20,000 nucleotides of DNA from Neodothiora populina (Eukaryota): contig NW_027191408.1 in assembly GCF_041146345.1 (NCBI RefSeq), positions 1,417,671 to 1,437,670 of the forward strand, given 5' to 3'. Under the pieces are notes generated by a model that made no database searches, was not told the origin of the DNA, and saw only the letters and a list, made by a program, of their open reading frames with translations. Below are positions 3,836 to 20,000 of the stretch, piece by piece (position 1 is the first letter of the stretch; each line of letters starts with the position of its first letter). The translations under genes and the position numbers were made by a program.

Positions 3836-5564
3836 ATGCGTAAGTGGGAAGCATCAATGACCCGATCATAGCTGAAACTTTCGAAGGTAATCTCTCACAT
3901 AGGGTGCGACTGCAGGCTCAGAAAAGTAGCATTGCTTTATTTGAAATGGTCAAGCATCTCGCCTTCAGATGGCGATTCTGTGACAACACGAAGGTCTCCG
4001 ACGAGGAATCCGGGCTCAATCGAACCAACACGGTCAATCCGGGAGAGATAGCTGCCGGACATCCCGAAGCCAAGGCGATGGGAAGCGAAGACTGCGGTGA
4101 AACAGTCCGTACTCAGCGCAGCCATACCGGCCCAAATCTCTCTTGGGACTTTACAGTACCCGAATTATCGATCGCGAGTAATGGTGGTAGTCCTCTCTTC
4201 GAAGTCGTAGCTGCAAGCATAGAGTATGGTGGATTGGCACTCGAGCTCAATTCAGATATGAACCAGGCTGTCCACCACACGGAATCGACTAGTGCGAAGG
4301 AGCGCAAAAGCCACTCACCTGCTCTGAGACAGTTCAAAGCTATCCTTTACGGATCGTGAATCAACGTTCTACTCCTCTGCGTTCCTGTTGGATTTGCCGT
4401 CAAGTATGCTCACCTCAATGAATATACTCTTTTTACCATCGACTTCGTCGCTATCGTTCCGTTAGCTGCGATGCTTTCCTTCGCCACCGAGCAACTGGCA
4501 CTATATGTCAGAGATACGACGGGTGGCCTACTCAATGCCTCATTCGGTAACGCCACGGAGATCATTGTCGATATCATCGCCTTGAATCAGGGAAAGATCA
4601 CCATTGTGCAGACTTCGCTCATTGGCAGTATGCTTCTGGATCTGCTGCTTGTCTTGGGCATGTGTTTCGCCTTGGGTGGTTACAATCGCATCATGCAGAA
4701 CTTCAACGCTACCGTGGCGCAAACTGCCGCCAGCATGCTCGGGTTTGCCGTCAGCTCGTTGATCGTACCAACAGCCTGCAAAGCCTTCGGTAGCGGCAGT
4801 GTAGACATCTCCGGAGAGTCCCATGGAGTTGCAGTAACGATATCTTGCTGTTCGTTTATGCAGCCTTCCTCTACTTCCAGTTGAGCACTCATGCCCACAT
4901 CTACGCTGAGCCCTCGCAGAAGTCATTAGAGATCAAGAGTACCAAGAAGCAAAAGAGGAGAGCATCGCTCAACCGTGGAACCGTAGGACTTGATTCGCCG
5001 ACTGAAACTGGCGGCCAGGTCCATAAAGCTGATACGGCGCACGCAAGGAATGAGCAGGAAGAGCAACCAATTTTAAGCAAGACCGGTGTTCTCGTCTCTC
5101 TTGCTATCGCCACTGTACTGATCGCCTTCTGCTCTGAATCTATGGTCAGCGGTATCGATTACATCGACAAAGATGGTCATGTATCCGAAGAATTCGTCGG
5201 TCTTATTCTCTTACCAATCGTCGGCAACGCTGCAGAGCATGCTACAGCGATCACGGTCGCTATGAAAGACAAGATGGATCTTGCAATCGGTGTCGCCGTC
5301 GGATCCAGCTTGCAGATCTCTTTGCTAGTCGTACCACTCATGGTTGTCGCCAGCTGGTGCGGCGTCGGCGATGCCACACTGTCTTTGAGCTTTGACGGCT
5401 TCCAGATTGCCGTGTTGTTCGTCTCAATGCTTCTTGTGAACTACGTCGTTCACGATGTCAAGAGCAATTGGCTCAAAGGAACACTTCTCATGTGGCTTTA
5501 CATTATCATCGCAATCGCCGCTTGGCTTTATCCTATGAAGAGTACAGTTAGTCGATCTCCCTGA
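3836..5564 (+). pseudogene. VCX1-like: Vacuolar Ca2+/H+ exchanger (CaCA/CAX, VCX1-like) pseudogene
   Basis: alpha-1 repeat GLLNASFGNATE and alpha-2 repeat GNAAEH, plus family segments IVQTSLIGSMLL, FVGLILLPIVG, KDKMDLAIGVAVGSSLQI, KSNWLKG. In-frame TGA at 4357-4359 where Trp is expected (YGS*INVLLLCVPVGFAV), with the frame continuing into ORF 4471. Frameshift at ~4837-4841 (GVAV + ACGAT + ILLFVY). Likely start ATG 3836 (or 3821) with intron 3840-3886 (GTAAGT...AAG), which joins in frame. Confidence 0.9.
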
Positions 5565-10446: not shown

Positions 10447-11370
10447 TCATGAGAAAAATCCTCCATTCAAATGTGGCAGCAGGAGCCCATCGCGGAAGCC
10501 TCTTAGATAAGTATCGACGTTGATGCTACGCAGCCAGACATCCCGCCCTAATTCCGTCTCGATCGCCGTACGCCTCCGATATCCGAGACACTCCCCGTCT
10601 TCGACAAAAGGCACCGGTCTCCCGAACACTGCCTGTGCCACTAATGCCGGCTCAGAGCCTACAAACACTCGGCTGCGCAGCCGAAGCCTCTCCATACTTT
10701 CGCTCATATCTGTCTCCGTTCCTTCTGCTTGTACTGTATGCCAATCTCTCGACGTACTCAAGGCTGGCACACAGCTGCTACAGTGTACTGCAGCGATACC
10801 AAATTCTCCATGCCATCCACCTTTGAACTCTTCTGGCAACTTCTTTGTGCTGCAACCCACGGCGACCATGCTGCTACACGTCACGCAACATAAGATACCC
10901 TGACCTGCGACGTCGATGCCCTCCTTTACAGCAGCTGCTTCGCTTCTTTGTTGTTGAATAGTTGCCGAGTCTGGGTCTTGTTGACTTGCGCCCGTGCCTT
11001 CTTTCGATCGAAATTGGTTGTTACTACGGAGATCAGCGATTTGTCATCTAGAAATGTAGGTATATGTACTAGGATCCTCAGGCATTTCCTCAACAGCCTC
11101 GCAATCCTCGTTTGCTTCGAGAATAGTCTCGTCTGCAACGGGCTCTACATGATTCCATCCTGAGAAAGGCTCTGGAGAAGGCTCAGAAGGAGGCTCCGAG
11201 GTCTCGACATCGATGTTGGTGCAAGGTTCGTCCTCACCCCAGTAAACCTGCGTACGTCCTGTCTTTACCAGGTGTGAATATGTCTCGCTGTCAATCTTTC
11301 CCTGGGTATGAAGCTCCTCTATCTTCGCACGGAGTGCCCTCAGATTCTTGGTAGACTTCTTGCTGCTCAT
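10447..11370 (-). pseudogene. Decayed hypothetical protein gene (unknown family)
   Basis: ATG at 11370 opens a protein-like 108-aa ORF (basic N-terminus, acidic/Pro linker). Protein-like sequence continues in shifted frames (PTFLDDKSLISVVTTNFDRKKARAQ...; ...LGRDVWLRSINVDTYLRGFRDGLL), interrupted by several stops. Confidence 0.4.
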
Positions 11371-11769
11371 GATGTTCTCGTATTCTCCAGTGATTGGAAA
11401 GACTACGAAGAAGAGTTGGACCTTTCGAATGATGTCGGGTGGGAGGGGTTTAGATGTAGCTTCGCCGTCCCCACTGCATCAATGTCTCGATAATATATTG
11501 GCCGGCGCATATGCTTGATCATACAGCTGCCTTGTAGCAATTCGCAATTAAGGGCACCGGAAGCGCAATGCACATGTCACGCACACCTCGGCTCTGGTAT
11601 GGTCTCTGATCGCGTAGATCATACACTCTTTGTGACATGTTCTCTAGCCTGCAAACATAATTTTACCTTGCAGTGGGTGGGCGTGCTTATGCATGCATAG
11701 GTCAGTCCATATGCCTACTGTACTAACGATACATGATTTCCATGCAGCTAGATAGACCTTCAATGAAGC

Positions 11770-13654: not shown

Positions 13655-13780
13655 TCGCCGCCGTCGCTCCCCTCCGTGTGAGCGTAAACCGCCATCACTG
13701 TGACCTCTACCCGATAGCAACCTATACGATACGCCCTCCACAATACACACTTGCACGATCTCGACCCTGACACAACAACA

Positions 13781-15787
13781 ATGAAGAGCAAGATGGATGA
13801 CATGGACACGTCTGATTCTGATGACGTTCAACGGCTCAGGTCCAGGCTCGTCTCGGAGGCTCCTCTGACGTGGGTAGTGCCGGGACAACCGGTCGTTGCC
13901 CTCATGACGACGAGCGAGACGGACGCACAGAAGCCGTGTCAGAGTGTCGGACAGCCATCGCTGCGCAATTGTGTTGGGGAGACGCTGTTCCTGTGGATCG
14001 CCTTGAACCAAGACACTAGCGAGCTCTTCATCGCCTTGAGTGTGCGAGTCGCACTAACCAAAGCTCGATCGACTCGCACCAGGCCGCGCAAAAGTCCAAG
14101 TCGTACGCTGTTCCTTGTCATCCCTCCAGAGTCGCTCGCTCTCGAAGTGAACCACGTTGCCTATACCAGTGATGCCATCCCAAGCCAGTTCCGTCAATCT
14201 CCCTCCGACACCGAGTCTGGGAAATGCAGCATCATGCATATGTCGTTCGACCTCGGCGATAGTAAGAGCAGTGTCATCATGCCAGCATACGACATGCCCA
14301 AGTCTCCCATCATGCCGTCGTCGTTGGCTTTGCTTCGTGAAATCAAGTCCTTGTCCGAAGTCTCGCGGTTTAGTCTCTATGCCAATGCCGATCATGTGAT
14401 GAACCGGTCCCTCGAGCAAGTCCGGAATATGTTGGAGAAGTCTCACCCTGTCACCGCACCTTCTGTCCATTTAGATCGATTGTACCCTGGCAATCGTAGC
14501 GCATGCGTGGATAATTGGAATAAGCAAGGCTGGTTCCTTGAGAAGAGCGCACTTGTGAGCAAGACAGACATTGACCAAGCACCTGATCCCTTCAAGCAGC
14601 CCTTGCCGCTGTACGAAGATGCAAATCAACCATCTCTGTCGACGACTTCGGCACCTGCGCCGTCATTACCCTCTACCGCCCCTCCTGCCTACGATGAAGA
14701 CCACAGCCCACCGATCTCAGCAGCTTCGCCTTCCATAGCACATGCTTGCCTTGACTCCCATCTCCTTCATGACATCGAAGCTCCGTTGGCCGGCTTCGCG
14801 CCATCTCCTGCCTCGTCTTATCATCCCCTCTTCCGCTCGCCAACCCCAAGACCTCCACCCACACCTTCGCCGCTGCTCTCTTCGGACTACACTGCTGATC
14901 TCGTTGCCACTTCCCCGTCCGATACTGTCGCATCCGCCATCCTTGACACAACAAACCGCGCTCTGTCCGAAGAGGCTCACAATGGGGGAAAAATCGCTGC
15001 GAGCGAAAGGTCCGCCCAGATACTGGATCCAGTGCGACGGAAACGCCCGTCTTCCGCTGCACACCAGGCGACCCATCCAAAGTCGATGCGGGTGTTCCGC
15101 ACGCCGGCCTCTGCTCAAGATCTTCCTGGTCCTCCGTCACGATTTGCTTCCACTATGTCGACCACCCAGCCCGATACACCATCCCGCCCCATCGTCTCGT
15201 CTCCGCACAACACTGCCGTGGCTGAGTCGACGCTCGGAAGCAATGATACTGTATATGCGCCCGATGAGACTTGCGTCACATTGTGGCTGAAAGAGGCATG
15301 GAAAGTCTGCCCGGGAGCACACTTTGTTTGTATCATTGAACTCCTCAGCCTTGCCAGCGTCGCCAGCAAGCATGACGAAGAGAGCAATTCCAGATGTTGG
15401 GCAGCCTGCACAGCCGCACTCGTTCGGTACTGTGCCGAAGAAGACCTTGCTCGAACCCGTGACCTGCTTCAGACCCAGCCCGACCCTGTCGAAGACGATA
15501 TCGACTTTGATGAGATGGCTGCCTTGACTACTTGGTTGTGCGTTCTGCGACGTGGTGCTGACATGGAATTCTTTGCCTCTTTATTAGAGTTATCGGCCTT
15601 GACCCAACGACACACACGACCCTGGTTCCATGAAGCCGTAGAGCCTGATCTAGTCACACAGTATACACATCAGAAAGCTAAGCTCATCGACCATGCCTGT
15701 ACCGGCCTTTACCAAGACATACTTGAGCAAGGAGAAGATGCTATCTTCTTGGCAATGATGCGCGAGAAGAAACGGCTAGGCATATAA
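13781..15787 (+). CDS. Hypothetical protein (~668 aa): folded N-terminal domain, Pro/Ser-rich linker with LPxY/PPxY motifs, basic RRKRP motif, helical C-terminal domain
   Basis: Uninterrupted 2-kb ORF. ATG at 13781 in good context (ACAACAATG), preferred over the TTG at 13751; in-frame upstream stop at 13715-13717. LPLY at 14603-14614, PPAY at 14681-14692. Confidence 0.8.
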   Translation: MKSKMDDMDTSDSDDVQRLRSRLVSEAPLTWVVPGQPVVALMTTSETDAQKPCQSVGQPSLRNCVGETLFLWIALNQDTSELFIALSVRVALTKARSTRTRPRKSPSRTLFLVIPPESLALEVNHVAYTSDAIPSQFRQSPSDTESGKCSIMHMSFDLGDSKSSVIMPAYDMPKSPIMPSSLALLREIKSLSEVSRFSLYANADHVMNRSLEQVRNMLEKSHPVTAPSVHLDRLYPGNRSACVDNWNKQGWFLEKSALVSKTDIDQAPDPFKQPLPLYEDANQPSLSTTSAPAPSLPSTAPPAYDEDHSPPISAASPSIAHACLDSHLLHDIEAPLAGFAPSPASSYHPLFRSPTPRPPPTPSPLLSSDYTADLVATSPSDTVASAILDTTNRALSEEAHNGGKIAASERSAQILDPVRRKRPSSAAHQATHPKSMRVFRTPASAQDLPGPPSRFASTMSTTQPDTPSRPIVSSPHNTAVAESTLGSNDTVYAPDETCVTLWLKEAWKVCPGAHFVCIIELLSLASVASKHDEESNSRCWAACTAALVRYCAEEDLARTRDLLQTQPDPVEDDIDFDEMAALTTWLCVLRRGADMEFFASLLELSALTQRHTRPWFHEAVEPDLVTQYTHQKAKLIDHACTGLYQDILEQGEDAIFLAMMREKKRLGI

Positions 15788-17784: not shown

Positions 17785-17820
<36 letters not shown>
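17747..17820 (+). mobile_element. 3' terminus of a non-LTR retrotransposon (LINE/SINE-like), 5'-truncated
   Basis: Stem-loop AGCT-TATACGG/acgacaaga/CCGTGCA-T-AGCT (17747-17778) followed after 6 nt by an (AATC)9 tail. No RT ORF or TSD seen. Confidence 0.45.
17785..17820. repeat. (AATC)9 microsatellite
   Basis: Nine exact copies read directly from the sequence. Confidence 0.95.
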
Positions 17821-17823
<3 letters not shown>

Positions 17824-18149
17824 AATGTTAAGGAGGCCGATTTGTTCGCGGGGGCGATTATGTTTGCGGGCATACTAGTAAGATCAAATGAAGGACAGCT
17901 TATACAGCCAGCCTCGCCCGTAAAAAACTCGGACAATATGTCAATCAGATGAAAGCTGAGAAATGGGGAAGGAAGAGAACTGTTGTTGAGAGTAATGTGT
18001 CATCAAGGTATTAGCCTTCGTATCTTCTTTTACTCTTAAAAAATCCCCTTGAGCTTGGCAGTTGAATTCCTGATACCGCTCGGTTTCTTGCTGCTGTATA
18101 TGATTGCAAAATCGTCTTGTACCTGGGTTTGTTTTTTTACCTTTACCCA

Positions 18150-18387
18150 CATGTGCATCTTCTCTGCTTCCGCGAGCTTGCCTTGAGCTCTGTATGGAAT
18201 GCCGAGATTGTGAACAGTGTCAAGCGTCGAGGTGTGTTCCGGTCCTACCGCTTTCTCGTTTCCTTCGAGCGCCCGCATGTACATCTTCTCTGCTTCCGCG
18301 AGCTTGCCTTGAGCTCTGTATAGAATGCCGAGATTGTTAACAGTGTCAAGCATTGAGGTGTGTTCCGGTCCTACCGCTTTCTCCTTC
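18150..18387 (-). repeat. Tandem 126-bp TPR-coding repeat (~1.9 units, highly similar at DNA level)
   Basis: CATGT(G/A)CATCTTCTCTGCTTCCGCGAGCTTGCCTTGAGCTCTGTA begins at 18150 and at 18276 (126 apart). Confidence 0.9.
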
Positions 18388-18440
18388 CCGATTGTCGATG
18401 CACATTCCATAGTATCTGCCCTCTCCGTCTCGTCCGAGAC

Positions 18441-18500
18441 TTCATCAGACCATGCTTCGAAGTCTATCTTTTCATCAGACCATGCTTCGAAGTCTATCTC
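18441..18500. repeat. 30-bp tandem duplication inside the NLR (encodes (E/K)IDFEAWSDE x2)
   Basis: TTCATCAGACCATGCTTCGAAGTCTATCT(T/C) at 18441 and 18471; one mismatch. Confidence 0.95.
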
Positions 18501-19938
18501 TTCATATAAGCGTATTGCATGAGGGAGCAACCGCCGTTCTAATACCCAATACTCGTGCTGAGACTTCTCCCTAGGTACTAGATCTCCTACACCATGTGCA
18601 GCTACATGGAGGAGTTCAGTCTTCTCTTCACCTACACAGAGATGAGAGCACCACAAGTGTAAAACTGCGTGCATAGAGTGACTCCACGTATCTTGTTGAT
18701 GTTGAATCAGACTATACCGTCTAAGCAGTCCGATAGCATCTGAGAACTTGTGTTCCTCCGAGAGTGTCAGAAGCCACTGTGTGGCGTCGCCATCTTTAGC
18801 CCATCTCGAAATCGATGCGACAAGCTCATACCATATTTCTATAGGAGCAAGGAGACCCCAGAGTCTTAATAGACCTGCTGCTACATGGTCCTGATACACG
18901 ATCTGATCATACGACAGTGTCCATGTTGTTAGAACACTACGTCCACCATACTCCGCTAAGGGTTGTTGGGCTTGCTGCATCTCAAGCAGCCTTTTCCATG
19001 TCTTTTTGTATCGTTCCATGTAAATTATGGCGCTGATACCCGTGTACCGAAGTTATGCACCAGCTTGGACAAGCGCGAGTGGTAAACCGTGCAGTTCAGA
19101 AAGGAGAAGGTGCGAGTCTAAATATTGTAAGCTTCCAACTGTGTCACTAGTCGAGATAGCGATGTAGTTAAGACCGACCTTGGAAAGGGCCCCCAGCGTT
19201 CAACTCTAGTATTGTTCTAGCTTGTCGATCGTCCACTCTACCAACCTCTAGAGATCCTTCAAAACTGCGCGCTATATCTATAAGCCTGCTATTTATAATC
19301 ACGGCTCCATGATATGCTTCGGGAAGGAAGTCGTGTATGTTGAATGCTTGGGAGTCTCTGTCTCGATTTCGGAATTCGCGATCGACATTGTCTATAACCA
19401 TTAGCCATTGTTTGTTGGATGGTAAAGACAGCCAATTTAGCACGGCTTGTAACACGCCATCTATATCTACCTGCAACGATTGAAGGATCTCTCTGACTTC
19501 AACTGGAAGCTCATTTTCAGGTATCCGGTATGCTGCTTCAACAAAAGATTGCTTTAGTTGATTCTCGGAAGACCCATTTAGCCAGATCACTGCGCTGTAG
19601 ATCTGATGGTGATTTCGGGCATGCTCAATAGCAAGTTGTGTCTTACCAATGCTACCCATACCATAAAGTACAAATACCCTCTGCTCAGGCGGGCTGAAAG
19701 CTTCTGGAACTAGGTACCTCTCAACCTTTGACATTTCCGTCGTGCGAGGAACAAAAGAAGTGACCCTTGGTATTCCTTTAAAACTGAAAGGTATGTTGTG
19801 ACTGCCTTGGTCTGTTTAAATAGATCAGCTAACCTGACTTGACGATCCTAGGACGTAGGTCGTGAGGGGTTGTATATACATGTAGCCCGAGCGAGCAGCA
19901 ACGACGGTGACTTGTCAACCATAACTTTAATAACATCT

Positions 19939-19990
19939 TTAGGGTTAGGGTTAGGGTTAGGGTTAGGGTTAGGGTTAGGGTTAGGGTTAG
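19939..19990 (+). repeat. Telomeric repeat tract (TTAGGG)8 + TTAG, followed by non-telomeric TAGCGGCACG
   Basis: Read directly. TTAGGG is the canonical filamentous ascomycete telomere unit. Confidence 0.97.
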
Positions 19991-20000
19991 TAGCGGCACG

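Follow-up and report, generated by a model that had tools for sequence, protein, structure and literature searches.

The window that we analysed, a 20,000-nt stretch of DNA from Neodothiora populina, ends in what is probably a chromosome-end telomere seated inside an NLR gene of the SesB-like/NB-ARC/TPR type. We consider it likely that the end of the chromosome was lost and that telomerase then added repeats to what was left, leaving a promoterless pseudogene. The telomere itself was readily detected. Tandem Repeats Finder reported a perfect (TTAGGG)x8.7 tract at positions 19939..19990 of the plus strand (52 bp, 100% matches), and the 12-mer TTAGGGTTAGGG was counted seven times in this tract and not once in the rest of the window, against 0.02 copies expected from shuffles. 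On the plus strand, the G-rich strand runs 5' to 3' toward the end of the window, as is expected at the right-hand end of a chromosome. The tract adjoins a coding exon directly, and no subtelomeric sequence lies between the two. Repeats fused to the unique interior of a gene without any subtelomere are the hallmark of a terminus that was lost and then replaced by a de novo telomere.

The start of the tract was set at 19939 because base 19938 is a T where a repeat in register needs a G. The AAA codon read on the minus strand at 19940-19938 has positions 19939-19940 in common with the first TTAGGG; this TT, perhaps TTA, could come from the gene or from the repeat. Both the tract and the reading frame confirm the original prediction, which held that telomere repeats are joined within an NLR exon, with the AAA codon overlapping the TT and without a spacer. 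The last 62 bases of the window consist of the telomere tract and ten non-telomeric bases (19991..20000, plus strand), so that the repeats do not quite reach the window's end. These ten bases have no second copy anywhere in the window (one match, to themselves), and they resemble no adapter or vector that we recognise. Noise at the end of the contig, a leftover of an adapter or the beginning of more sequence could each account for them. The ten bases were absent from the original prediction, as were the premature stop and the second intron described below.

The truncated gene could be followed from the telomere through three exons. The minus-strand frame that opens at 19940 encodes KDVIKVMVDKSPSLLLARAT. 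This remnant of exon 1 (19880..19940, minus strand) comprises 20 codons plus the opening base of a Tyr codon that the intron divides, and it was delimited from the frame, the relatives and tblastn. Alignment with the relatives places within it an ATG (19920..19922, minus strand) that corresponds to a conserved internal Met and lies 16 nt from the first base of the telomere. Intron 1 (19812..19879, minus strand) is a phase-1 intron of 68 nt, GTATAT...CTGAT...AG, in which CTGAT forms a branch-like site. It was placed by colinearity with the relatives: splicing builds the Tyr codon from the T at 19880 and the AC at 19811-19810, and the spliced product is colinear, without gaps, with the ..ARSQYQGKH.. 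of the relatives. The in-frame splicing of the 19940-19880 exon over this GT..AG intron into the NB-ARC exon, as first proposed, is thereby borne out. Exon 2 (19179..19811, minus strand) encodes the N-terminal two thirds of an NB-ARC/STAND NTPase, including the Walker A motif GMGSIGKT. Intron 2 (19118..19178, minus strand; 61 nt, GTCGGT...TAG, phase 1) was located by alignment with the relative P0001, in which residues 225 and 226 fall at 19180 and 19118, respectively, and no residue is lost. A frameshift between 19199 and 19168 was dropped in favour of this 61-nt intron, across which the relatives align without loss. Exon 3 (18036..19117, minus strand) encodes the rest of the NB-ARC domain with its GLPLAL motif, a DUF7779-like region, a linker and two TPR units, and it closes with a terminal stop at 18038-18036. 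Once spliced, the gene reads from 19940 to this stop as 592 codons in one frame, interrupted by one internal stop. Homology to the relatives can be traced as far as about 18150, beyond which ~38 codons of seemingly unrelated sequence lead up to the stop; the 3' end of exon 3 at 18036 should be taken as provisional. A candidate intron of 53 nt with GT..AG borders was also seen within these last ~38 codons.

The gene is predicted to be a fungal NLR whose original architecture was a DUF676/SesB-like alpha/beta-hydrolase followed by NB-ARC and TPR. The TPR region was matched by the Pfam families TPR_10 (E = 1.8e-15; 56.8 bits against a cut-off of 27.5) and TPR_12 (E = 1.7e-14). For exon 2 alone, the Pfam match to NB-ARC was weak (E = 0.0031; 17.2 bits against a cut-off of 23.5), as was the match to AAA_16. 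The same exon matches NB-ARC-annotated relatives at E-values of 2.9e-61 to 1e-22, relatives with E-values down to 2.9e-61 carry NB-ARC as well as TPR, and the Walker A motif GMGSIGKT and GLPLAL are visible in the alignments. A word-indexed search with exon 2 retrieved 14 longer relatives, and an exhaustive library search gave 4884 matches at E<=1e-3 and a listing of the best 150 among them. More distant relatives possess PNP_UDP or patatin domains, and their linkers are unrelated. The two TPR_10/TPR_12 units of the window gene correspond to a 126-nt tandem duplication (18146..18383, minus strand; 1.9 copies, 94% matches), and the relatives have more units.

Several side observations concern the same region and the same family. 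The two TPR units show the near-identical-repeat pattern that has been described for fungal NLRs. The linker that precedes them holds a 30-nt tandem repeat (18440-18505, minus strand; 2.2 copies, 94% matches), which duplicates the acidic sequence IDFEAWSDE, and at these positions the linker aligns poorly with the relatives. Proteins P0018, P0020, P0023, P0028 and others, of ~200-280 aa, present an unrelated start a few residues before ..Y.GKH... A phase-1 intron that the relatives share after ..ARSQ, with prokaryote-style gene calling running into it, would produce such starts.

The ATG at 19922-19920 appears from the alignments to be a conserved internal Met in the C-terminal helix of the hydrolase, and not the ancestral start codon. 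The motif P.LL.AR that follows it is carried by five of the 162 proteins collected; in P0022, P0043 and P0049 it lies 224-331 residues deep, after ..HF.MNKF..EEDF.TV..V[VI]..M. Using residues 1-330 of P0022 as a query, we retrieved 137 relatives, mostly from Dothideomycetes. HF.MNKF was identified in 69 of 277 collected proteins, and for 60 of these 69 a Met is found 24 residues later, which is the register of the window. The Met is separated from the telomere by six codons, KDVIKV, which conform to the x[DE]V[VI][EKQ]x pattern of the family. A matrix derived from the 43 distinct hexamers of the family gave KDVIKV 8.38 bits; in the six-frame translation of the window, 10 of 30949 hexamers reach this value, as do three of the 621 window hexamers that precede a Met (KDVIKV included). 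The family's own hexamers have a median of 13.7 bits, and the homology upstream of the Met rests on six residues. With tblastn (word size 2), exon 1 was recovered as a colinear match directly before that of NB-ARC: residues 118-136 of P0243 matched 19940-19884 with 58% identity, and residues 274-291 of P0163 matched 19937-19884 with 67% identity. The suggestion that the exon-1 peptide is the tail of an alpha/beta-hydrolase (SesB-like) domain, made at first from the peptide itself, agrees with the 60 relatives in register.

The number of residues that precede the junction-equivalent column in these 60 relatives ranges from 109 to 583 with a median of 275. The window gene would accordingly have lost ~275 residues (the median in the relatives) together with its start codon, its 5'UTR and promoter, and any sequence farther out. 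Of the hydrolase domain, just the final 20 codons are left before the telomere, and tblastn (word size 2) with six of the 69 tail-bearing relatives found no hydrolase remnants elsewhere in the window. Together with a homology that reaches the telomere, this upholds the predicted deletion of the N-terminal domain and promoter.

The missing domain appears to be a divergent DUF676/SesB-like alpha/beta hydrolase. In P0022 (residues 1-310), Pfam matched DUF676 at E = 0.078 (12.9 bits against a cut-off of 20.3) and Abhydrolase_6 at E = 0.092; among 51 aligned relatives, DUF676 was found in eight and Abhydrolase_6 in nine at E<=1e-3. The Atlas feature score was 0.96 to DUF676 clusters and 0.93 to a SERAC1 cluster. 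We compared the AlphaFold model of the relative P0168 (pLDDT 86.8) to the PDB using Foldseek. Its first half matched lipases and thioesterases, e.g., lipase BlEst2 (6wpy_A, TM 0.66 by target), as well as monoglyceride lipases, and its second half matched Apaf-1 and plant NLRs. The predicted structure gives the domain of the relatives an alpha/beta-hydrolase fold. The nucleophile column of the 51 relatives contains Cys in 31 cases, Ser in 11, a gap in eight and Leu in one, with the consensus AHCFGG, and the His of HF.MNKF is present in all 51. Going by this composition, the clade might possess a variant SesB-like hydrolase with a Cys nucleophile. The nucleophile and His positions have both been lost from the window gene. 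In the part of the study of Dyrka et al. 2014 (PMC4986451) used here, a lipase-like, SERAC1-related domain is termed sesB-like and sesB-like/NB-ARC/TPR figures among the architectures listed; the same part of the study pools an in-house sesB signature with Pfam alpha/beta-hydrolase annotations.

The part of the gene that is left presents one further lesion. A premature in-frame TAA, identified in the alignment of the relatives, occupies codon 253 of 592 (19053..19055, minus strand) within the NB-ARC/GLPLAL region. The corresponding column contains Tyr in 70 of 79 relatives and Phe in the other nine, and TAA is one base from a Tyr codon. A hidden intron over the TAA (19055-19053) was considered and rejected: the sole GT..AG pair encloses 28 nt, which is too short, and the relatives align straight through. 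In the NB-ARC tree, the terminal branch of the window has a length of 0.65 relative to a median of 0.27. With only 16 nt between the ATG and the repeats, there would be no room for a promoter. Because the promoter appears to be gone and one premature stop interrupts the frame, the NB-ARC-TPR remnant is best called a pseudogene.

Little else in the window could be assigned to a family. A Ca2+/H+ exchanger gene, the only other gene that Pfam recognises, was found on the plus strand at ~3844-5564, or about 4360-5564 by a narrower estimate, where Na_Ca_ex was matched on two ORF pieces (E = 1.3e-24 and 1.8e-12); since the match is split over these two pieces, the gene is expected to have introns. 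Its best matches are from Neodothiora populina (66%), Delphinella strobiligena (64%) and Aureobasidium (61%). We searched Pfam with a 689-aa ORF and 36 other ORFs of at least 85 aa, retained as not simply overlapping better ones and including one from the 3' region of the NLR gene itself, and only the Ca2+/H+ exchanger scored above the curated cut-off. ORF 11044-11478 gave a sub-threshold Pfam match to Ribosomal_L19e_C (E = 0.0028). An Rfam search and a tRNA scan of the window yielded no Rfam family and no tRNA. The 689-codon open frame (13718-15787, plus strand) is Ser/Pro-rich, lies in the GC-richest part of the window (0.55-0.57) and has no Pfam match; it has an Atlas entry from residue 22 with a model pLDDT of 0.46, and its nearest clusters consist of unnamed ascomycete proteins (0.94). 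We also observed a perfect (AATC)x9.2 microsatellite at 17785-17821, ~200 bp downstream of the NLR remnant.

The truncation of the coding sequence has to be weighed against the gene models of two relatives, the closest full-length ones in the word-indexed search. P0001 from Elasticomyces elasticus (50% identity) and P0005 from Zopfia rhizophila (43% identity) begin with MVE..P.LL.ARS at residue 1; their first residue is colinear with the window's Met at 19922-19920, and neither has an upstream domain. Nine further relatives of the 73 in the NB-ARC tree present fewer than 40 residues before NB-ARC. These proteins are what would be expected if the window gene belonged to a natively domain-less NB-ARC-TPR form starting at Met 19922, from which the telomere removed only the 5'UTR and promoter. 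We regard this as distinctly improbable. P0278, which comes from another E. elasticus strain and belongs to the 90%-identity cluster of P0001, possesses FFGTPFRG...HFDINKF upstream of NB-ARC, and this suggests that the Met start of P0001 is a modelling choice rather than the mark of a domain-less gene. The P0278 model skips the stretch that contains the Met, and the P0001 model starts at that Met. P0005, a single-member cluster, is the lone remaining counter-example. A phmmer search of the collected proteins with exon 2 ranked the tail-bearing P0207 first, and a hydrolase tail was present in 14 of the 16 best scores. The NB-ARC tree, a quick IQ-TREE inference with SH-aLRT support only, contained 74 rows, i.e., exon 2 of the window and 73 relatives chosen from 221 matches for near-full coverage and a minimum length of 380 aa, a choice that excluded 148 fragmentary or partial matches. 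The window was sister to P0182 and P0219 (Aureobasidium, both with the tail; SH-aLRT 95), P0001 was sister to the tail-bearing P0207 (SH-aLRT 86), and P0005 branched inside the same 7-row group (SH-aLRT 85). Moreover, the fit of KDVIKV to the family profile would be unexpected of an old UTR at ~50% protein divergence. The original prediction had asked where homologues start relative to this Met, and the answer is divided: P0001 and P0005 do start there, whereas the Met is internal in 60 relatives and P0278 has the hydrolase upstream. Given the upstream hydrolase sequence of P0278 and the nesting of both P0001 and P0005 among domain-bearing proteins in the tree, these two models do not appear to overturn the truncation. 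After the wider searches, the tree and the cluster-mate P0278, we dropped the candidate of an N-terminally complete CDS that is missing only its promoter.

Because of the ten trailing bases, two other alternatives have to be considered. The first is an artefact of assembly, in which the repeats, or the contig's last bases, would have been joined through a chimeric read or over-extension of the contig to a gene that is intact at the real locus. The ten single-copy, non-telomeric bases are of the kind that read noise or an adapter remnant might leave after the tract, and the tract is short (8.7 repeats). We nevertheless find an artefact unlikely: the repeats are perfect and in true right-end orientation, the putative 2-3-nt seed at the junction is typical of real de novo telomeres according to the part of PMC7367193 used here, and the independent premature stop and the long terminal branch (0.65 against 0.27) both fit a dead gene. 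Alternatively, the contig could run past position 20000, and the tract could be a telomere internalised in or beside the gene by an old end fusion or by repair after telomere failure. Sequence does resume at 19991-20000, and internalised telomere tracts are described for Pyricularia in the part of PMC8381367 used here. However, a 20-kb window placed arbitrarily would only by coincidence have its edge ten bases past such a tract, and the four codons past the tract, RAAT, are unlike the ..EEDF.TV of the relatives, although they are too few to decide. An interstitial tract therefore seems quite unlikely to us.

For the truncation at a chromosome end, healing by telomerase on a TT(A) seed is a plausible and, in our view, the most likely origin. 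A break, or erosion of the telomere with resection, would have removed the chromosome end. Telomerase would then have extended the exposed 3' end of the plus strand, ...CATCTT(A), with those 2-3 bases as its seed. The loss may have been tolerated because the gene belongs to a large family that is dispensable and turns over fast. In the blast fungus, the part of PMC7367193 used here reports seeds of 1-4 nt for 19 of 24 de novo telomeres, with which the TT(A) at the junction is compatible, and nested terminal truncations are described as common in the corresponding part of PMC8381367.

More speculatively, the conserved internal Met might act as a latent start, such that beheading near it would recurrently yield expressed domain-less NB-ARC-TPR proteins. 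We view this as very improbable. If it were true, the P0005 protein of Zopfia would have been beheaded by another route, and expression could come from, e.g., transcription at the chromosome end. The domain-less proteins could then be regulators or decoys of their full-length paralogues, and telomere healing would generate architectural diversity among NLRs in addition to destroying them.

Under the truncation that we favour, the window would offer a base-resolved case of chromosome-end instability pruning the NLR repertoire of a fungus, with a cut that lies within coding sequence and spares just the final 20 codons of the effector domain. It would connect the fast turnover of NLR genes with the instability of fungal chromosome ends, both of which are well known, and the junction marks a possible chromosome end in the source fungus. 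The case also carries a warning for annotation, as a conserved internal Met allows gene callers to output plausible "domain-less" NLR models. Since P0001 and P0278 represent the same type of locus under two models, counts of N-terminally "missing" NLRs may be inflated.

Among known systems, the window gene shares with Pa_2_10340 of Podospora anserina, as presented in the part of PMC4986451 used here, an NB-ARC domain followed by TPRs of the kinesin-light-chain type with near-identical repeats. Compared to the sesB-like/NB-ARC/TPR NLRs covered there, it keeps the tail of the lipase-like domain while the domain itself is gone, it contains a premature stop and it has only two TPR units. Its sister group is formed by P0182 and P0219 of Aureobasidium pullulans and A. 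melanogenum (SH-aLRT 95). These two proteins and P0207 present the linker ..V[VI]..M....P.LL.ARSQYQGKH.. in the same register as the window, and they possess 197-306 hydrolase residues before the junction-equivalent column, all of which are lost in the window. They are only 46-51% identical to the window gene (P0207 of Elasticomyces elasticus being the highest, 51%) and do not represent orthologous alleles. PMC12258605, which deals with the NLRs of Sordariales, makes no mention of telomere or subtelomere. Chromosome-end truncation of this sort is already a well-known and ordinary kind of event. The de novo telomeres of Pyricularia (Magnaporthe) oryzae, in the parts of PMC7367193 and PMC8381367 used here, are alike in that repeats are set on non-subtelomeric sequence via a seed of a few bases and in that genes adjacent to the end are lost or cut; those events were seen arising in progeny, clones and reads, whereas the present one is read from a single assembled sequence. 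AVR-Pita of P. oryzae, located 48 bp from the telomere (same part of PMC8381367), likewise is a non-essential and fast-evolving gene beside the repeats, but it is whole and functional, whereas the window gene is cut inside its coding sequence.
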